IMG/VR virus record: IMGVR_UViG_3300042448_000816
Span: 48,371 to 112,370 of that record
Length of the DNA stretch: 64,000 bases
Origin: a virus
Reading direction: 5' to 3' (one strand)
The stretch's first letter is position 1; every line of letters begins with the position of its first letter. The notes below the pieces were generated by a model, which was not told the origin of the DNA, made no database searches, and worked only from the letters and a program-made list of their open reading frames with translations. Both the position numbers and the translations under genes were made by a program. Of this stretch, positions 2,843 through 64,000 are shown one piece after another.

Positions 2843-4001
2843 TGTCAATGTCCAAATCAACGTCTAGTGCAAATCGAAATTCTACTAGATTTGAAGTATT
2901 CGAAACTTTTACTACAGGAAGAGAGTCTTGAGACTTCACTACAGAATAACCTGTCATTCCGTATAAAGGGTTGATAGATGATACGTTTTCTAGTCTAATT
3001 GCGTCAAGAGCTACGTAATAGTCTGAGGTCGGTGTTCCGCCAGCCCCCAAAACAGATGCCCAAATTTTTACAACATTAACTGAGTTCCATGTAAAGATTG
3101 TACTTTTTACTAGCTCGTCTAGCCTTTTGGTAGCAACAACATATCTATTGGTTGAAAAGTCGTGCTGACCTTCACCAGTTCCATTAGTTAGATCAACTTG
3201 AAGCTGGGCATAACTTGTTGCTTCGCCAGCGTCGTTGTCTGCAAATTCAACTAGAACTTTTACACGAGATGGGTGAACTTCGTTTGAGGCATCTTTGCTG
3301 ACAACAGAAAATGCAAGCTTTAGCTCGTCCATTGCTGAGTTTTTGTTAAGATCAATACTTGCTGCAAGCAAATGTATGTGATTAGACCCAGAGCTGGCTA
3401 CCATTTTTGATCCTGAAGGAATTGATAATGTTGACTCATCTCCAGATATAAAAATACTGTTATTAAGATATCTGCAGGACTCGTATCTTTCTAGCCTCTG
3501 AATGTCCAGCAAAGTTTTATTATCTGCATTAGTTTGAAAAACTTTAGAGTCCTGAGTAATTATTTCTGGATCTGTAGTAGCTAATGGTACGTTAATTATA
3601 GGAATTGCTGTAGCATTTGTTGCTGTGTGATGTTCCCAATTTTCTGTTGTTGAAAAAGAATATACCATTTTGCTATCATAGGCTCCCGCTGTTGGGTTTG
3701 ATGCAGCAGAGTAAACACCTATTTCTGTAATCTCATATCTTTCAACTGTTGGCAACTCTGCAGTCAAAACAATCTTAGACGCACCGTCTTCATTTACATA
3801 TCCTTTTGAGCTAATGGGAACACGAAACATTTCAAACTCTAGATTTTTCTTTTCTAGTATAGAAGAAATTTCATTATTGTTGGGTTCGTGATCTGCTGAA
3901 TTTGGTTTAGTTCCACAGCCAATAGCAATGTGTGTTGCGTATGCTGGAGCTTGACCAATAAGGTATTTGGCTAGCAAGTTTTTTCCAACGTTTGTAATCA
4001 T
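2832..4001 (-). CDS. Baseplate/tail fibre-attachment-like structural protein
   Basis: MITNVGKNLLAKYL...IAIGCG...ITEIGVY pattern typical of fibre-attachment proteins; tail-tip position. Confidence 0.6.
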   Translation of the reverse strand: MITNVGKNLLAKYLIGQAPAYATHIAIGCGTKPNSADHEPNNNEISSILEKKNLEFEMFRVPISSKGYVNEDGASKIVLTAELPTVERYEITEIGVYSAASNPTAGAYDSKMVYSFSTTENWEHHTATNATAIPIINVPLATTDPEIITQDSKVFQTNADNKTLLDIQRLERYESCRYLNNSIFISGDESTLSIPSGSKMVASSGSNHIHLLAASIDLNKNSAMDELKLAFSVVSKDASNEVHPSRVKVLVEFADNDAGEATSYAQLQVDLTNGTGEGQHDFSTNRYVVATKRLDELVKSTIFTWNSVNVVKIWASVLGAGGTPTSDYYVALDAIRLENVSSINPLYGMTGYSVVKSQDSLPVVKVSNTSNLVEFRFALDVDLDIDNAS

Positions 4002-4968: not shown

Positions 4969-7900
4969 TTACACCTCACTCAAATATAAACTCATGCTTG
5001 GTCCAGAGCTATCTTTTTTATAATCTATGCTATAAACAACAAATCTTTTTTCTGGATCAAAAGTTACTTCATCAGAACTATCAGAATAGTCTATGGACAC
5101 GATATCTCCTAGCTGTATTGTTGGGTTAGCAAAAATGCTAACGCCTACGGACCTTCTCGGTTTCATAATTTTTGATATTAACCATTTCATTAAGTTGTTA
5201 GCTGCATCAGCACTTTGTATATATATAGAGTCCAACAAAAACTGATTTCTTCCATATGTTATTCTACTAGATTTAATGTCATTATACAATTCTTTTTGTG
5301 TTCCTGGAGACAGGATGGTTAGGTCTTCTTTTAGTTGTGGATTTGAAAAGTTTGAAGTTTTTTCAAAATAATTATCAACAGTTAAATCATAGCGAGAATC
5401 TTGAGTAAATGTTATTCCTTGAATTCTTAAGTAGTTTCCAACTGTTTCATCTAAGAATAAGAATGTGTCTGTAGCGTTAAAGATTAAGAACTCTGCACCA
5501 TATGCTCCAGCAAAGAATCCAGAAACCGTGTATCCACGAAGCTTGTTAAATGTTGGAGATATTGATGCGTATAAGGCTGGATAAGCCTTGTCATACTTTA
5601 CATTAAAGTATGCCATCTCCCTAAAGATACTGCCGAACTCTTCATAAAACATGTTATATTTTGGTGGCTGAGATGGGTCTATTCCAGAAAGGTATGTAGG
5701 TTGAACAATACCATTGATCGAATATTTCCTAAATGCTTCATTAGATGATATGTCAGATTTGTTTGTAAAAATTTCATTTGCAATTGGGCCCAGAGAAACG
5801 TCAGAGTTTTGACTATAGTTGTTAGTTAAAGCATAAACATTTTCAAACATGCAGTGAGACGCTCCACGAACAAACAGTGCCACATTGTTTACATTATTTA
5901 GGGGGAGTGGGTCTGGATCGTCAACTACCGCTATCTGAGTATCATTTAGGTATAAGAAAAATCTTCTAGAATTTCCTACTGGTTGATACTCTATAGCTAG
6001 ATCATAAACAGTTGTCAGCTCTTCAGCCACTACCCTTGACTGGCCAGCAAAGTTTCCATCATCAACAATAATAGAGGATAGACCGCTCCAAAGCTTAACT
6101 GGTATTCCGTCTTCATCTCTTGTCAAAACCCATTTTGAGTTTTCTGATCCTGGCGTTGTTAGCGTATAATATCCATTTTGAGAAGGATCTTTTTGTCCAA
6201 TTAAAGAAACTCTTTGACCAACTTGAACAATGGATGGTGCTATTCCTCCAGACGGCAGGATAAGTTCTCCATCCTGAGAAGCTGTTATAGTAGTAGGCGT
6301 TGCGGCACCAGGCAAGTTATTGTCTAGGGTCAGGCTTGTTGCTGTTGGCGTTGGGTCTTTTGTCGGATCTCTTAGAGGAGTCTGAATGTCATAGCTTGTG
6401 TTTTTTAATATTTTATAGAAAAATACATTAGCCACTCCGTCTAAGTCAAAGGTAGAAGGAAGCAGCGATATGTTTTCGGTCTGATTGATTCCAGTGGTGT
6501 CTTCAACTGTAAATCCAAATCCAGATATGGTTACTGCTGCTGATGTTGCCCCAGTTACGGTCCAGGTTCCGAGTGCATATGTAGGCAGATTTACAGGACT
6601 AGAGCTAGCTGGCTTTCCAGAATCAAGAATAATTTTAGATCCGACTGGGTAGCTTTTACTTGCTGAGCTAACGTACACAACAGCAGAGTTAGAGCTAGTG
6701 GCGTTAAATCGTGTAACATTTTTTCTAACTCTAGAGCTATTTAGCTTATACTTATCTATATTTTTTTCTGATAAAGCTGCTATCTCAAAGTAGTATCCGT
6801 TGTTATTTTCTGGATTTAAAAGTGTCGCAATTCCACCGCTTCCACCAGAAATAGTTTTATTTTCATCTGGGGTTGTGGTTTCCACATTAAAGTATGTTGT
6901 TGCTCCTGAAGCATTCTGAATTGACTTATCATTGTTTTCAATTTTTCCGATAATTCTCATTCTTGTTCCAAAATGTTTAAAAGAATTATTTAATGGTTTA
7001 TTTACGTAAGAAATAAAATCTATTGGAGAATCTTCTGAAGAAAACGATGGTCCATTAAATACCAGGGCTGATGCCTGAACAGTTTCTGATGTAGAGGAAA
7101 GCTGATTCTTGCTAGATAGCTCTTCGTTGTGAGAAAAAGATAGATAGTTTTTTATTACGCTAGACCTTGAAGACTGAGTAGCTAAAGACTTTCCTACTCC
7201 AGCTGATCCTGTGCTAATGTCCCCAGTAAATGCAAAATTTCCAAACAAGTAGTTTGACTTCATTTTACATCCATAAACATTGTCGTTGCTTGTCCACTCA
7301 GGGCTTAGTCCTGCAACGTGAGGCACGATCTTTGTACCAAATTGTTCTCTGCCGTGTTTAGCTACCTCACCGTTGGACATTCTGGTTATGCCATTAAAAG
7401 TTTCGTAGTTTGGCTCTGCATAAATTCTTACACGTCCAGTTGGATAGATTTTTCCATTAAATGATAGCTTAGAGAAATAGTCTTCGTATTCTTGTGGACT
7501 TGTTATCCAAACGTTTCCTCCAGTAAAAGTAGATCCTGTTACGCTTGATGGCAAAACCGAAACGTTATACTCTACTGCATCATACCTTATAACTTCTCCA
7601 GCAGAATAAAAATATCCATTGTATCTTCCGATAAACAAAACTCCATCTCCAAAGTCAATAATGTTATTGACAATTTCATGATTTACGACCCTAGGTATTT
7701 GATCATTCAAATCTGAGTTCAATGGAATAGCTGCTAATGCGTATTTGTTTCCAGTTGCTGTTTGTCCATTTGTAGGCTTTATATTTTCTGTTCCTGAAAC
7801 TTCCCAAAGCAATGCTGGCTTGTATATCCAGGAAATATTTTTATCTGCAACAAAGGCTTGCTTTAGAGACCCCATAGATTTCTGAATGTACCTTGCTATA

Positions 7901-21058: not shown

Positions 21059-21376
21059 CTAGTTCAAGACGTTGAGAGCTGTATCTCCTAGCTTTACGCC
21101 AGAAGCCTCCTCAACAATCTTGTAGACTGTAGGAAGATCTAGATTATCTTCCAAAGCCTTCAAATCTTCAGCCAAGTCGGGCTTGTACTGCTTCATTGCA
21201 ATTTGAACACATTCCATCAGTAGGCTCATCGACTTGTCATTGTCTTCTGCTACATCTGTAATACCCTCAAACTTTTTCATAAAAGGACGCAACAGTGAAA
21301 TCTTTAGTGGTCTCACCTTAACTTCTGTGCCGTCAATTAACTTAATTGTTTTCTCTTCGTATACTTCTGTACTCAT
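21059..21376 (-). CDS. Tail assembly chaperone (short paralogue)
   Basis: Lies between tail tube and TMP; own TGTTATAAT promoter and SD. Confidence 0.7.
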   Translation of the reverse strand: MSTEVYEEKTIKLIDGTEVKVRPLKISLLRPFMKKFEGITDVAEDNDKSMSLLMECVQIAMKQYKPDLAEDLKALEDNLDLPTVYKIVEEASGVKLGDTALNVLN

Positions 21377-59738: not shown

Positions 59739-60118
59739 TATAGAGTTCCCGCCGTGACATCAGCAGCTACTTTAATTGTTCCAAGAACTGGAGTCCAGAT
59801 TATATCATCAATCTGTACTTCAAGGTCGAAAGCAATTTCAGCAACTGTTCCATTATAGCCAGATCCCCAAAAAGAAGTAATCTCTGGAGGAGCTATGATA
59901 TTTACATAGCCATCTTCAACCTCAACGGTCAAGGAATCCAGGACATCTCCCCTATTGTCATATGTAGTAGAAGCAAAGTTCCACTCTTCTATGTCAAAAG
60001 TAGTTGTTTCATCATTTTCAAGAAAGTCTACACGCAATCTAGCAGTATCACCACGAACAACGTTCCATTTAACTATTGCTGGTGTATTGCCAAATGATTC
60101 AGGTATAGACATAGTCAT
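59738..60118 (-). CDS. BppU-N-like protein (paralogue of 54691..55113)
   Basis: GNTP..V.W.VVRGDTA; start re-assigned to ATG 60118 after TGATATAAT. Confidence 0.65.
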   Translation of the reverse strand: MTMSIPESFGNTPAIVKWNVVRGDTARLRVDFLENDETTTFDIEEWNFASTTYDNRGDVLDSLTVEVEDGYVNIIAPPEITSFWGSGYNGTVAEIAFDLEVQIDDIIWTPVLGTIKVAADVTAGTL

Positions 60119-60362
60119 AATATTGATTATATCACAGAAAACGTTAAAAAGACTAATACTCAAGTTGGTGGGTATGAGAGACAAACCTGAGTATTAGCCT
60201 TATAGATTATAACATAACAAACGTTATAATATCGTTATAAAGTATTTGCACTTAAAAATAAAAAGTGTGGTATATTGTTATAATTAGGTTTTAAGATATA
60301 TATAATATAAAGTATATAAGATATTAAATATATAGTATAGTTTTATATATTATATATAATAA

Positions 60363-60614
60363 TCACTTTTTGGGTTTCGCAACTTTTACTGGTTTTGTTT
60401 GTTCTAGCAAAATATCATAAATTTTATCAACTTTTGATTCCAGCTTTTCATGTTGGTGTTCTAGTCTGTTAACCTGGTCTTTTAAAGAAGATCCCCCGTT
60501 TGGCTTTAATTCAGCAAAATAGTGCTTAACTAGCCATTTGATTACAAAAGCCAGGGAACCTAAAATCGAGATAATACCTACAGCAATAGCTACTAGGGAT
60601 TCAAGCATAGTCAT
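60363..60614 (-). CDS. Putative holin-like membrane protein
   Basis: One N-terminal TM helix, ELKPNGGSSLKDQV.RLE coiled coil, basic tail. Confidence 0.55.
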   Translation of the reverse strand: MTMLESLVAIAVGIISILGSLAFVIKWLVKHYFAELKPNGGSSLKDQVNRLEHQHEKLESKVDKIYDILLEQTKPVKVAKPKK

Positions 60615-60778
60615 GATGGTTTAATTATAATAGCGTTTATGAAACATAAGAGCTCGGCGTAAAAAAGTCTTTAAATTTCGACGATTTTAAGTACGGCGAT
60701 AATAGAGAGACAAAACACATCCCTACAACATATGCATCTAACGATGCCCTATGTAGGAATAAGTGTTATAATTAGCAT

Positions 60779-60979
60779 ATGGCTAAAGACGTTAAATTCA
60801 CTGATCTATTTGATCCTAACCAGCCTAGAAGCGACAAAGAGCTTATTGAGCAAAGACTAGCAATTTGCAACGTATGCCCAGCATTCAAAAAGAACACACA
60901 GAGATGCAAATACTGTGGCTGCTTTATGCAATTAAAGAGTACTCTCCAACAAGCTAAATGCCCTATTGGCAAATGGTAG
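60779..60979 (+). CDS. Small Cys-rich protein, paralogue of 55730..55969
   Basis: RLAICNVCP...RCKYCGCFM.LKS.L..AKCPIGKW; TGTTATAAT 6 nt before the ATG. Confidence 0.8.
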   Translation: MAKDVKFTDLFDPNQPRSDKELIEQRLAICNVCPAFKKNTQRCKYCGCFMQLKSTLQQAKCPIGKW

Positions 60980-61221
60980 AAAAGCTCTGTACGCCTCTAT
61001 AAGGGCTTCAAATATAAAATACGTCTTCCAGTATCCCACATGTGTCAAAAGTCCCCAGAGGAAGCTTGTATGGCTTTATAGGGTTATATGAGTTATATTT
61101 GATAATGGGGTTTTTGACTACCAAGAGAAAAGTCTTGGTTTGTACCCCGAAAAATTTATATGTCAAATAGGGAGATAGGCCTTTGGCCTATTATTTATCA
61201 ATTCGTTACCAAATTGTTATA

Positions 61222-61269
61222 TTAGATCTTCTTACCACATTTGCATGTATCGCACTTGCAATCATTCAT
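61222..61269 (-). CDS. 15-aa CxC-x2-CxC micropeptide (MNDCKCDTCKCGKKI)
   Basis: Starts 2 nt after the upstream stop; SD-like AGGGA. Confidence 0.35.
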   Translation of the reverse strand: MNDCKCDTCKCGKKI

Positions 61270-61271
61270 GG

Positions 61272-61352
61272 CTAGTCCCTGTCTCTGTATTTGATCAATA
61301 TGGCAATAAGAAATACCATCAAGAAGATTAAGGTGCCTTCTATGAGTGCCAT
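61272..61352 (-). CDS. 26-aa single-TM peptide (MALIEGTLIFLMVFLIAILIKYRDRD)
   Basis: GGTATAAT 6 nt before ATG 61352. Confidence 0.5.
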   Translation of the reverse strand: MALIEGTLIFLMVFLIAILIKYRDRD

Positions 61353-61536
61353 GGATCTATTATACCCCCGAAATCTGAAAAATATTTCAAATTGGAGAAA
61401 ATCTGAATATTTGTTAGTTATGTATGATGCAAAAAAAATACAAAAAAAAAGAATAAGACTAGTGAGCACACACCACAGCAAAAAAAAATACACTAACATT
61501 CTTTTTACCGAATGCTAATGCTTCTTTTTTTATTTT

Positions 61537-61620
61537 TTAGTAATCGCAACCGATTTCTGGATGCTCACTTGGGTAAACATCTTGTCCACATCGTGGGCAG
61601 TCAAACATTTCATCTTCCAT
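61537..61620 (-). CDS. 27-aa zinc-finger-like microprotein (MEDEMFDCPRCGQDVYPSEHPEIGCDY)
   Basis: Strong SD AGGAGGTG; CxxC...H...C. Confidence 0.6.
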   Translation of the reverse strand: MEDEMFDCPRCGQDVYPSEHPEIGCDY

Positions 61621-61682
61621 TCTTCACACCTCCTAACCCGTACGACTTTTTTTATAGACACTAGTGCCACTGTTTTTATAAA

Positions 61683-61829
61683 CTAGTCTGACCCATAGTG
61701 ACTAGTAGCCACTACCCAGTAATGACCAACGCAATAACTTTCATCAACATCTTTGCCGTCTAGTGTTATCCTAATTGACTTAGTAGCATCACCATCGCAA
61801 TTGTAATACTGGCATTTAGTTTCTTTCAT
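61683..61829 (-). CDS. 48-aa zinc-finger-like microprotein (MKETKCQYYNC...YCVGH...)
   Basis: C-x4-C...C-x2-H; within the operon. Confidence 0.6.
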   Translation of the reverse strand: MKETKCQYYNCDGDATKSIRITLDGKDVDESYCVGHYWVVATSHYGSD

Positions 61830-61841
61830 TTTTTCTTCTTT

Positions 61842-62054
61842 CTATTTGTTTATTGTTAGGTTAGATAGTGAGTTTAGACTTTCATCAAACATTTTGTCGA
61901 AAGCATTTTGTGAACGCCTAAGCTCCCAACAAGCGTCTACATCGTGACCCTTAGCCCAAGCCTTAGCGTGTTTATAGTAGCTAGTGTAATCTTCTTGAGT
62001 ATACCCGCATACTTTACAGGTCATTTTTCTTGGCATAACAGTTGATTTTCTCAT
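61842..62054 (-). CDS. Small zinc-finger-like protein
   Basis: CKVCG...H...C; ATGA overlap with the upstream ORF. Confidence 0.65.
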   Translation of the reverse strand: MRKSTVMPRKMTCKVCGYTQEDYTSYYKHAKAWAKGHDVDACWELRRSQNAFDKMFDESLNSLSNLTINK

Positions 62055-62149
62055 TTATCTTCACTTTCATTTATTGCTATTGTTAGGGTTGTAATGTTGC
62101 TAATGGCTTGGTCAAACTCTTCCCAAGTGTCAAAGGTTAGTGTTATCAT
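62051..62149 (-). CDS. 32-aa microprotein (MITLTFDTWEEFDQAISNITTLTIAINESEDK)
   Basis: SD GGAG; abuts both neighbours. Confidence 0.55.
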   Translation of the reverse strand: MITLTFDTWEEFDQAISNITTLTIAINESEDK

Positions 62150-62287
62150 TTAGAACTCCATCAATTCTACGCCGTAAGCGTTGTAGCAATTTTCGCAACC
62201 AAACTCTTTGGCTTCTTCTACCCAGATTTGAGTAGTGTAGTTATCGCATAGTTGGCAGATACCTAGTTTTTGTTCTTGTATTTTCAT
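62150..62287 (-). CDS. 45-aa zinc-finger-like microprotein (..CQLC...GCENC..)
   Basis: CxxC-x16-CxxC; tight operon packing. Confidence 0.6.
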   Translation of the reverse strand: MKIQEQKLGICQLCDNYTTQIWVEEAKEFGCENCYNAYGVELMEF

Positions 62288-62290
62288 TTT

Positions 62291-62524
62291 CTATTTCTCA
62301 TTTCTTTTTTTGTAATCTTCATTCATCTTAGCAATCATAGCGTCCCAACGAGTGTTAGCTTCATCGGTGATTTGCTTATCGGTAAAGTAGTGTTGGCTAG
62401 CTAGAGCCTTTTCATAACGCCATTCTTCACGGCTAACGGCAGAGCCATCGTCACTACTTTCGGCAGTGTAGCAATTCTTTTTTAGGCTAACTAATGCCTC
62501 GAACATTTCTTCTAATTTTTTCAT
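62291..62524 (-). CDS. Hypothetical protein, first gene of the leftward small-gene operon
   Basis: SD GAAAGGA; preceded by the TGTCGG-N10-TAGGCT promoter. Confidence 0.75.
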   Translation of the reverse strand: MKKLEEMFEALVSLKKNCYTAESSDDGSAVSREEWRYEKALASQHYFTDKQITDEANTRWDAMIAKMNEDYKKRNEK

Positions 62525-62548
62525 TTTGTATCCTTTCTTTATGCTTTT

Positions 62549-62570
62549 AGCCTATCACTAGCTACCGACA
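62549..62570 (-). promoter_or_regulatory. PafBC/RecA-NDp-like promoter TGTCGG-N10-TAGGCT
   Basis: Exact match to TGTCGG-N10-TA-N3-T. Confidence 0.7.
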
Positions 62571-62673
62571 ATTGTGACCCTTTTTCAACTGATTTTCATA
62601 CAAACTTTTACCCTCTTTTTTGTAGGGTATCTACAACTGTTACCAAATTGTTATAATTATTTTTAGTTTTATC

Positions 62674-62699
62674 GGCGTGTCGACTTGACACGACACGCC
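62674..62699. repeat. Inverted repeat GGCGTGTCG-N8-CGACACGCC (two WhiA-like GACAC boxes)
   Basis: Perfect 9-bp arms. Confidence 0.75.
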
Positions 62700-62714
62700 C
62701 GACGGGGGCGGCCC

Positions 62715-62735
62715 TGTGTATAACTATGTGGATAA
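62715..62735 (-). promoter_or_regulatory. Two tandem DnaA boxes (TTATACACA, TTATCCACA on the minus strand)
   Basis: tgtgtataa at 62715-23 and tgtggataa at 62727-35. Confidence 0.65.
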
Positions 62736-62792
62736 CCTTGTTATGAAGATGTTATAAAATCCTCCTAAAATTACGGCGTGTCGATTTGATAA

Positions 62793-62814
62793 TGTCGTAG
62801 GTCTATGTTAGGTT
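62793..62814 (+). promoter_or_regulatory. PafBC/RecA-NDp-like promoter TGTCGT-N10-TAGGTT (1 mismatch)
   Basis: Also TTGATA-N17-TAGGTT, with GTGTC upstream. Confidence 0.6.
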
Positions 62815-62839
62815 ATAAGTAATTAGAAAGGATAAGTAA

Positions 62840-63022
62840 ATGAACGAAATAGTAATTGAAGGCTTCAAGTGTGTTGAGTGTGAGGACACTTACTACCACA
62901 TGCCAAGTTTTGGCTACTGTGATAACACTCTTGAGTGTGCGATTTCTGATGGTGATAGCGTCAAGCCTCACTCTTGGATTGCTAATGAGGGTGATGTTAG
63001 ATACCTTGTTAGGAGTATCTAA
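62840..63022 (+). CDS. Small Cys-motif protein
   Basis: SD GAAAGGA; CVEC...C...C. Confidence 0.7.
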   Translation: MNEIVIEGFKCVECEDTYYHMPSFGYCDNTLECAISDGDSVKPHSWIANEGDVRYLVRSI

Positions 63023-63141
63023 TGAACATCGTGGTAGAGGTTTTGGGTGTTGAGATCCCTGCCCTTGTAGTAGTGTGGGGATTTGGTATGTTGTTCTTGG
63101 TTGCTTTGTTTGTAGCAATTCACCTTGACACTAAAGACTAG
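63022..63141 (+). CDS. 39-aa membrane peptide (MNIVVEVLGVEIPALVVVWGFGMLFLVALFVAIHLDTKD)
   Basis: SD AGGAG; TAATG coupling; hydrophobic. Confidence 0.6.
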   Translation: MNIVVEVLGVEIPALVVVWGFGMLFLVALFVAIHLDTKD

Positions 63142-63273
63142 GCGTGTTGATTTGACATCCCCTAAAAAAATGGGGCGGCCCCCGTTTCCGATTTGTCAAG
63201 TTAGACACGCTTATGAAGTATACAAAAAATCCCCCGAAAGTTTGTAGCAAAACCTGTTGCTTTTGTCTACCAA

Positions 63274-63295
63274 TGTCAGTGGTGTGTGATAGTGT
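63274..63295 (+). promoter_or_regulatory. PafBC/RecA-NDp-like promoter TGTCAG-N10-TAGTGT
   Basis: Matches TGTCRgtg-N8-TAnnnT. Confidence 0.7.
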
Positions 63296-63320
63296 AATAG
63301 TAGATAGAAAGGAGTCAGAA

Positions 63321-63542
63321 ATGACAATAAACAAAATAGAAAACGGTTCCGTAGTAGAGCTTACCCTTAGCCACAAGTTGGACGGTGGTTGCCCTTGTGG
63401 TGCTACAGTTGCGATGTCCTACAGCAAGGACGGCTCTGGTTATGCCAGATACAACTACAGCAAGGTCTACACTCACAAAAGTGTAAACTTTACTGACAGC
63501 TTTTTTGCTGAGTTCGCTAAAAGATTTCCAGGCGAAATCTAA
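63321..63542 (+). CDS. Hypothetical 73-aa protein (MTINKIENGS...)
   Basis: SD GAAAGGAG before ATG 63321; the track start at 63213 is over-extended. Confidence 0.7.
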   Translation: MTINKIENGSVVELTLSHKLDGGCPCGATVAMSYSKDGSGYARYNYSKVYTHKSVNFTDSFFAEFAKRFPGEI

Positions 63543-63657
63543 AATAGTGGGGGTGTCGATTTGACATTCCCACAAAAATGCGGCGGCCCCCAAACCTATG
63601 CTTGTCAAGTATCAATTACGTTGAGTCTAAAAAATCCCCCAAAAAGTATTTGACAAA

Positions 63658-63679
63658 TGTCGGTCGTCTGTGATAAGTT
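63658..63679 (+). promoter_or_regulatory. PafBC/RecA-NDp-like promoter TGTCGG-N10-TAAGTT
   Basis: Exact match; TTGACA 18 nt upstream of the -10. Confidence 0.7.
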
Positions 63680-63703
63680 TTTGGTATAACGAAAGGATAC
63701 TAA

Positions 63704-63784
63704 ATGGAAGAGTTTTGGGAAGAGCGTTGCTTCGTTTGCCAATCGGCAGACGAGTGCCCTTGCGACGAGGGGACGGGATACTAA
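63704..63784 (+). CDS. 26-aa Cys microprotein (MEEFWEERCFVCQSADECPCDEGTGY)
   Basis: SD GAAAGGA; CxxC...CxC. Confidence 0.6.
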   Translation: MEEFWEERCFVCQSADECPCDEGTGY

Positions 63785-63861
63785 TGGAGGGGTTCGAGAC
63801 TGGCTACTGGACTCCAGAGTCATTAGACGAGTTTGCTTCCGACCTTCTTGAGGAGGCTTGA
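63784..63861 (+). CDS. 25-aa acidic microprotein (MEGFETGYWTPESLDEFASDLLEEA)
   Basis: TAATG coupling; ends at the next cassette junction. Confidence 0.5.
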   Translation: MEGFETGYWTPESLDEFASDLLEEA

Positions 63862-63889
63862 CAAGTCCCCTTCGGGGGGGGCGGCCCCC

Positions 63890-63898
63890 TGTGGATAA
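63890..63898 (-). promoter_or_regulatory. DnaA box TTATCCACA
   Basis: tgtggataa directly after the GGCGGCC core. Confidence 0.6.
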
Positions 63899-63955
63899 CC
63901 TGTGCAGATCTTTGTTATGAAGTTGTTATGAAACCCCCCGAAAATCTGCCACAAA

Positions 63956-63977
63956 TGTCGGTAGGGTGTGATAGGGT
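63956..63977 (+). promoter_or_regulatory. PafBC/RecA-NDp-like promoter TGTCGG-N10-TAGGGT
   Basis: Exact match, followed by SD GAAAGGA at the window end. Confidence 0.7.
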
Positions 63978-64000
63978 TTTAGTAATCAGATGAAAGGAAA

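Follow-up and report, generated by a model that had tools for sequence, protein, structure and literature searches.

Promoter-early stem-loops (PeSLs) have been described from the T4-type phages RB49/phi1, T4/PST and KVP40/nt-1. They are composed of an upstream stop codon, an AT-rich stretch, a sigma-70-like promoter, a stem-loop that often has a poly-G followed by a poly-C run, and a Shine-Dalgarno (SD) sequence. PeSLs precede ORFans in hyperplastic regions; terminator and promoter activity have been demonstrated, and PeSL recombination shuffles cassettes and yields mini-circles (PMC2839356, PMC4122927). Here, we describe an array of similar design in the final 64 kb (64,000 nucleotides, hereafter the window) of the 112,370-bp IMG/VR virus record IMGVR_UViG_3300042448_000816. 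At the end of the window, four units with very small open reading frames (ORFs) are separated by junctions with the motif TTGACA-N15/16-GGCGGCC. The element at these junctions is here called J, and positions are those of the window unless given as genome positions.

As in PeSLs, the array repeats an intergenic arrangement of a stop codon, a stem-loop of a G-run and a C-run, a host-dependent early promoter and an SD sequence before small ORFans. Cassettes are gained, lost and reordered between relatives in a hyperplastic early region, and the stem-loop may directly follow a -35 box. The differences concern the virus, which appears to be an actinobacterial siphovirus and not a T4-like myovirus, the promoter, which is of the PafBC -26/-10 type and often lacks a -35 box, and the stem-loop, which is a separate, imperfect palindrome of ~48 nt with -35-like arms, located 95-120 nt upstream of the promoter. 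With about even confidence, we regard the array as a set of PeSL-like hairpin-plus-promoter units that punctuate the early region, the shuffling of cassettes being a by-product of homologous recombination.

Other described systems are more distant. The early region of phiC31 reportedly has conserved early promoters and intergenic operator repeats, the CIRs (work of Ingham, Wilson, Smith and co-workers in 1993-1995), and its rho-independent terminators are said to lack poly-U tails. In that temperate phage, the CIRs are 17 bp long and serve as operators for a repressor that has been identified. Common to the two are an actinophage early region, highly conserved, repeated intergenic inverted repeats beside early promoters and hairpins without a U-tract; the present element, in contrast, is ~48 nt long with a variable centre, and a repressor and an integrase were not seen. 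A canonical intrinsic terminator shares the GC hairpin with J, but the direct U-tract is missing in the window copies. At the boundaries of its cassettes, which are promoterless, the attC/IntI system of integrons likewise has inverted repeats that are imperfect and vary in the centre, and it too forms an array of small unrelated ORFs. However, the present array is on a phage without IntI, its cassettes carry their own promoters, its conserved parts are -35-like hexamers, and the conserved GTTRRRY core is absent, only unit 2 having GTTAGAC after the right arm.

The units are built in a common order: the stop codon of the previous mini-gene, J, a group of short boxes, a promoter, the SD sequence GAAAGGA, and one or two ORFans. 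J follows the stop codon by 0-18 nt and contains GGGG-CGG-CCCC or CCCC-loop-GGGG hairpins. The short boxes between J and the promoter are TTAAGA or GTTAT direct repeats, TTACGA and CCCC-AAAA. Units 2 and 3 have the palindromic form (type i), where 36±2 nt separate (C)TTGACA(A), the left arm, from (T)TGTCAA(G), the right arm, and the arms enclose one or two GC-rich hairpins, and folding returns the arms and a central GC hairpin. In type ii (units 1 and 4), DnaA-box-like sites take the place of the right arm, an arrangement that relatives share both where the early region begins and ahead of the gene for a 46-aa protein of family fam2. The initial annotation had placed TTGACA at 62685, 63152, 63561 and 63858 and GGCGGCC at 62707, 63174, 63582 and 63880, separated by 16, 16, 15 and 16 nt, and all of these values are correct. 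The inverted TGTCAA 36 nt past TTGACA in units 2 and 3, the TGTGGATAAC-type DnaA boxes with GTTAT-N6-GTTAT in units 1 and 4, and the A-rich/CCCC tract, promoter and SD GAAAGGA in four of four units are likewise present as it described.

TTGACA-N15/16-GGCGGCC matches the window four times, compared to 0.00 times over 100 shuffles. GGCGGCC itself was found four times on the two strands of the window (0.97 expected), never outside the junctions, and the sole other copy in the genome is at position 21221 on the minus strand, within coding sequence. All exact TTGACA...GGCGGCC junctions are on the plus strand and inside the early region. The terminal ~219 bp of the record duplicate the initial ~219 bp; the genome is therefore a circular assembly of ~112,152 bp, and the array carries on at the genome start, with unit 4 at genome position 76. 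This bears out the suggestion that the array runs beyond the window edge. Further junction copies are found at genome 1062 (core GGCGGCA) and 4104, and copies with a variant or inverted core at 3019, 5600 and 9950. The motif also recurs in relatives, of which pattern scans and a protein-anchored search (DUF932 gene, fam13) gathered ~75 related contigs. From more than 20 of these, 45 distinct palindromic J copies were collected. The 1.07 Mb of related sequence contain 34 arm pairs, compared to ~4.6 in shuffles, and J is kept at orthologous junctions between genomes that are just ~70% identical. A scan of bacterial genomes for the junction returned scattered single matches in unrelated taxa, which we take as chance. 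Many J copies, from many lineages, have GATC in the right inner loop at a distance of 6-12 nt from the right arm that follows, and TGATC and GATCC are frequent forms of it.

Several features suggest that J is a hairpin in the sense strand. In this direction, many J copies have a stem of 4-6 bp closed by GAAA or UUCG, GAAA being the commonest loop (16 of the 104 hairpins upstream of promoters). At two sites anchored by flanking sequence only, the stems differ through compensatory changes (CCCCA/TGGGG, CTCC/GGAG, GCCCC/GGGGC, CCGCA/TGCGG, CCGA/TCGG and CCCTC/GAGGG). A fixed-register helix in the alignment of the 45 copies has a covariation of 0.140 compared to 0.097 in shuffles, of which 2 in 500 attained the higher value; 58% of the helix is paired, compared to at most 44% when slid. 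The flanking extensions of the arms, read in the sense orientation, contain 38 G.U and 7 A.C.

The GGCGGCC core, considered invariant in the initial annotation, differs already in the closest relative (L069; 80-88% nucleotide identity), where the orthologous junctions have GGCCCAGGGCC or CCTGGGGCC. Other lineages have GGTCGCC, GGGCCGGGCC, GGCGCGCGCC or GGGGCCCC, each present several times in its own genome, such that the core is lineage-specific and homogenised inside each genome. At orthologous type ii units the loop is CGG, CCG or TCG, and the change from CGG to CCG is a loop inversion, which is typical of hairpin-forming DNA. Retained across the copies are the arms, the spacing and the sense-strand GNRA/UUCG hairpin. 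Because the cores are lineage-specific and the loops flip at orthologous units, the core is best described as the tip of a GC hairpin made uniform within each genome and not as a conserved crossover site. At L069:4420-4465, a long G-rich tract with runs of G7-8 stands in for the GGCGGCC core of unit 1. A C-rich tract complementary to it is found 450 nt downstream (L069:4885-4920), and the pair brackets one cassette.

Downstream of J, the promoters resemble a class known from mycobacteria. The PafBC consensus tGTCgg(N10)tA(N3)T describes a hybrid promoter in which a -26 element replaces the -35 box (PMC8635444). Scanning with A(A/T)TGTC(G/A/T)(G/T)-N10-TAnnnT returned 15 matches on the plus strand, confined to genome 111,161..8,478, each of which leads an SD sequence and small ORFs without family matches, and one on the minus strand. 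In units 1-4, the -26 elements TGTCGT (62793-62798), TGTCAG (63274-63279), TGTCGG (63658-63663) and TGTCGG (63956-63961) are followed after 10 nt by the -10 elements TAGGTT (62809-62814), TAGTGT (63290-63295), TAAGTT (63674-63679) and TAGGGT (63972-63977). All four fit tGTCgg-N10-tAnnnT, a consensus that is mycobacterial, the phage host being uncultured. Likeness to the PafBC-dependent (RecA-NDp) promoters of mycobacteria thus extends to the spacing and to the lack of a -35 box in several copies; the difference is that these are early promoters of a phage, in a tandem array, and that in some of them a perfect TTGACA and the -10 are 17 nt apart (PMC8635444, PMC6789036, PMC11804915). In 69 related loci, the motif occurs 473 times on the gene strand and 37 times on the opposite strand. 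About a quarter of the family's promoters (104 of 406) have an upstream GC hairpin. Taken together, the pattern matches suggest that the cassette promoters are PafBC-dependent. The arms of J do not double as promoters of this kind: TAnnnT is absent at the correct distance from either the right or the left arm, both as a PafBC and as a sigma-70 promoter.

The cassettes themselves are variable. No Pfam or PHROG matches were obtained for the 60-aa and 39-aa ORFs of cassette 1 and the 73-aa ORF of cassette 2. Homologues of the 60-aa ORF were found only in L094 and L089, of the 39-aa ORF only in L088, and of the 73-aa ORF of cassette 2 only in L112. The five microproteins in the window and the first ORF of unit 4 have their homologues, if any, each in a different relative; fam2, the neighbour of that first ORF, is found in 28 loci. 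Gene order differs among the genomes G000, G001, G003 and G004 (fam4, fam12 and fam3 are relocated), and a fam23 cassette between two J units is present or absent depending on the genome. Two ideas of the initial annotation stand: J bounds self-contained cassettes of promoter and gene, in a layout of which the dyad element recurs in relatives, and cassette order and content are not constant. The left half of junction 3 is common to the J after the L112 homologue of cassette 2. Short mosaic patches within units suggest that copies recombine with one another, as does the way in which the core has become uniform in each genome. Searches of the complete genome for tyrosine and serine recombinases (PF00589, PF00239; controls positive) were negative, and an integrase or resolvase is thus lacking. 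Viewed qualitatively, the units appear to flank the indels and replacements that distinguish relatives. In a family-wide adjacency analysis, where the data points are phylogenetically non-independent, 84% of the junctions with a unit and 71% of the others were variable (odds ratio of 2.2, p about 1e-8), but all spacers of at least 40 nt were about equally variable. From these observations we infer that the flux of cassettes probably reflects homologous exchange or gene conversion among repeated regulatory units and is not site-specific at the core.

In the mechanism we propose, J would act mainly as a hairpin in the sense-strand transcript. The hairpin would attenuate or end read-through from the upstream cassette, or protect the 3´ end of the upstream cassette, and would leave each cassette separately controlled. 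An RNA-level function of this type, termination or insulation, is suggested by the stems and loops described above, and terminator activity in particular by analogy with PeSLs. Since all units of the array point the same way, as direct repeats, recombination by the phage-encoded RecA and a PD-(D/E)XK/Cas4-like nuclease, both present in the genome, could exchange, delete and duplicate cassettes and homogenise the copies.

A number of observations weigh against this mechanism. A terminator scan flags none of the J copies in the window, and the canonical U-tract is absent; read in the sense direction, the sequence 3´ of the core is not significantly enriched in T over the 45 copies (0.35, compared to 0.31 for A). 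Units 2 and 3 have a T-run on the opposite strand and are more terminator-like there; in some relatives, the hairpin is followed by T5-7. The J of unit 1 has no upstream ORF and is probably located in a 5´ leader whose promoter is of the canonical extended -10 type. The arms and the spacing from TTGACA to the core are conserved even without an intervening hairpin, which fits a protein site at the DNA level. RNAalifold on the 45 copies recovered the arms only, and the arms were the selection criterion; the inner hairpins are out of register among these copies. Finally, rearrangement is not significantly more frequent at junctions with J and a promoter than at promoter-only junctions (88% and 80% variable, respectively; p=0.11).

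The serious rival, although in our estimate an unlikely one, is a DNA-level role of the -35-like arms, in which J is a double-stranded site for a protein, either sigma-A RNA polymerase or a phage regulator. In the first variant, each strand offers sigma-A polymerase a perfect -35 hexamer with no usable -10 and thereby holds it, as a decoy (the alternative raised in the initial annotation), a roadblock or a local reservoir of RNA polymerase, possibly modulated by the phage WhiB protein. Members of the WhiB family bind region 4 of sigma, the part that reads the -35. In the second, J is bound by a phage regulator, as are the CIR operators in phiC31 and the stoperators in mycobacteriophages of cluster A. 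Such a site would account for TTGACA and its inverted copy being invariant across lineages, for a spacing of 13-17 nt between TTGACA and the GC core even where no hairpin lies between them, and for the identity of the left side of J (GGCGTGTCGA and TTGACA) with the upstream half of real promoters. Lineage-specific cores could co-evolve with a phage factor, and both the WhiB gene on the phage and the missing U-tract of J agree with it. Yet the sense-strand GNRA/UUCG loops and compensatory stems are hard to reconcile with duplex DNA, a scan of early proteins, most of which are unannotatable, returned no helix-turn-helix regulator, and the arms may have been picked up by the search patterns used.

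It is quite unlikely that J is instead an RNA-processing signal, e.g. an RNase III site, which cuts polycistronic early RNA into stable monocistronic pieces. In T7, RNase III sites (R0.3-R1.3) sit between the early genes, and J, which is intercistronic and has no U-tract, resembles the T7 processing hairpins in that, within ~48 nt, the arms form a lower stem and internal loops separate it from a GC stem above. Separate expression does not need processing, however, when every cassette has its own promoter, and the upstream GC hairpin is found at no more than the 104 of 406 family promoters noted above.

Still more of a long shot are two speculative schemes that combine the arms, the core and the promoter. 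J could be a tripartite element in which arms read by sigma-A, perhaps via WhiB, and a lineage-specific GC core co-evolving with a phage factor park polymerase or hand it over at the PafBC-type promoters. Alternatively, the palindromes could extrude hairpins of single-stranded DNA (ssDNA) and help activate PafBC, which senses ssDNA. If extruded hairpins do switch on PafBC, the phage would trigger its own early promoters.

That J is a small mobile palindromic element spreading within phage lineages (akin to repetitive extragenic palindromes or miniature inverted-repeat transposable elements, REP/MITE) is very unlikely. The terminal inverted arms, the core in both orientations between them and the several near-identical copies per genome with lineage-specific variants are as expected of such an element, which would also account for the same core within a genome and different cores between genomes. 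Against it, J occupies orthologous junctions of genomes ~70% identical, copies are restricted to the early region and have a constant place within the regulatory unit, no recombinase or transposase was found (PF00589, PF00239 and Pfam scans of the larger ORFs), and no target-site duplication was noticed, though no systematic search was made.

Least probable, and largely refuted, is the proposal of the initial annotation that a dedicated, integron-like system exchanges cassettes site-specifically, with GGCGGCC as the core where crossover or cutting takes place. In its favour, different pairings of left and right halves do occur around the core (e.g. at the orthologous site before fam2, where G000 has a DnaA-box right half and L069 a TGTCAA right half), and homology with L112 downstream of cassette 2 stops near the core. 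However, no other part of J is as poorly conserved among relatives as the core, tyrosine and serine recombinases are absent from the complete genome, all cassettes come with promoters of their own, a GTTRRRY after the right arm is present in just one of four units, and J is no hotter than promoter-only junctions. The GGGG-CGG-CCCC triloop hairpin also brought to mind an N4-like promoter for a virion RNA polymerase. Such promoters have a stem of 5-7 bp at -12, closed by a loop of 3 nt, and are served by a giant RNA polymerase carried in the virion; the giant ORF of this genome (3458 aa) is a tape measure protein (PF10145), and this candidate was rejected.

The virus is a 112-kb siphovirus from lake water. 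Its structural genes include those for the tape measure protein, a portal, a protease and many fibre proteins, and for replication and metabolism it encodes the DNA polymerase III alpha subunit, DnaB, DnaG and a class II ribonucleotide reductase. RNA polymerase was not found in genome scans, and the complete genome has neither a WYL protein nor a sigma factor. A WhiB-family gene (PF02467, E=4e-13) is located at genome 23,135-23,470 on the minus strand (locus L138); among 14 control genomes, the family was found in Corynebacterium only. The portal is 46-47% identical to portals of ~130-kb Streptomyces phages. Because WhiB is encoded, the portal is nearest to Streptomyces phages and the early promoters fit the PafBC consensus, these three lines point to an actinobacterial host. 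One fibre protein is similar to cyanomyovirus proteins. A cyanophage host, prompted by this likeness, is outweighed by WhiB, the portal affinities and the PafBC-type promoters, and the fibre is taken as a case of module exchange. A blastn search of the array region against GenBank phages gave zero matches, and Rfam, searched with a permissive E-value over 60000-64000 of the window, gave two chance matches to small RNAs only, both off the junctions.

Upstream of the array, a divergent PafBC-type promoter, ATTGTCGG-N10-TAGGCT (62549..62572, minus strand; a promoter-pattern match), is at genome 110942 the single minus-strand match mentioned above and heads the leftward small genes. It faces a leftward block of small Cys-rich ORFs that extends from 62524 downwards. 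Since it points into this block, the gap at 62,530-62,680 is probably a divergent early control region. On the plus strand, which carries all features listed from here on, a candidate host-type promoter (TCTACA-16-TATAAT with TG; 62630..62657) is a consensus match only, and its extended -10 is conserved in L069. Junction 1 (type ii, 62674..62755), as read from the sequence and folding, has a 9-bp hairpin (GGCGTGTCG/CGACACGCC) that encloses TTGACA (62685), and in addition the core at 62707-62713, two DnaA-box-like sites (62715-62724 and 62727-62736) and GTTAT-N6-GTTAT (62740-62755). This layout is conserved in G001, G004, L099 and L100. Promoter 1 and its SD span 62775..62832, with GGCGTGTCGA, TTTGAT and GAAAGGA (62826-62832). 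Cassette 1 (62840..63141) encodes the 60-aa Cys-rich ORF (62840-63022) and the 39-aa membrane-like ORF (63022-63141).

Junction 2 (type i palindrome, 63141..63210) contains GGCGTGTTGA, TTGACA (63152) and CCCC...GGGG-CGG-CCCC, then TGTCAA (63194-63199) and ACACGC, with a minimum free energy of -12.7 to -16.6 kcal/mol. An A-tract/CCCCC element, promoter 2 and its SD (63224..63314) lead to the 73-aa ORFan of cassette 2 (63321..63542). Junction 3 (type i, 63550..63608), with GGGGTGTCGA, TTGACA (63561), the core (63582-63588) and TGTCAA (63603-63608), has the weakest central hairpin. It is followed by an A-tract/CCCCC element, promoter 3 and SD (63630..63697); this promoter has both a -35 TTGACA (63650) and the -26 element. 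Cassette 3 (63704..63861) has a 26-aa Cys-rich ORF (63704-63784) and, as a correction to the initial annotation, a second ORF of 25 aa (63784-63861), of which the stop codon TGA overlaps TTGACA of junction 4. This acidic ORF (MEGFETGYW...) has 64% identity to a counterpart in L069 and, because it is conserved there at the same position, before the J preceding fam2, the comparison suggests a real microprotein. Junction 4 (type ii, 63858..63929) has TTGACA, a CCCC-TTCG-GGGG tetraloop hairpin, the core (63880-63886), the DnaA-box-like TGTGGATAAC (63890-63899) and GTTAT-N6-GTTAT (63914-63929). The CCCCCC/A-tract, promoter 4 and SD (63992-63998) occupy 63930..64000, and the genes of unit 4 follow at genome 224-447, encoding 27 aa and then the conserved 46-aa Zn-ribbon-like fam2.

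Other intergenic features were noted in the surrounding early region. A ~0.8-kb non-coding, DnaA-box-bearing stretch (genome 9,950-10,750, L057), located where the rightward early genes end and the leftward genes start, contains iteron-like repeats (TATTACGATC.CC-AAATA...TTTCCCA), AT-rich runs, GTTAT repeats and two or three perfect TTATCCACA boxes, and is a candidate replication origin. The TTACGA/CCCC-AAA boxes found upstream of the cassette promoters recur in this stretch. A second conserved motif of the 3´ untranslated region, ACAC-CT-GAGCA-A-GTGT-CAAAAC-TGCTC, is pseudoknot-like and placed directly after stop codons, upstream of J-type hairpins; its sites in L057 are at genome 3,365-3,400, 3,965-3,995, 5,584-5,612 and 6,790-6,817, and it is shared with G001 and G003. 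A structured-looking insert of ~100 nt (CTTGTAAG...CTTACAAG) separates the fam9 stop codon from J in E_G001 (6,300-6,420) and E_G003 (7,170-7,280) and is absent from G004 and G000.

In conclusion, the array reveals no new recombination system. The PeSL principle was known before; the PafBC-type promoter and the -35-like arms are what is new here. The ~45 natural J variants and ~470 promoter copies are material for testing sigma adaptation and U-tract-less hairpins in actinobacteria. On our reading of the array as PeSL-like units, the principle that units of hairpin and promoter regulate and shuffle early ORFans would extend from T4-type myoviruses to a large family of freshwater actinobacterial siphoviruses.

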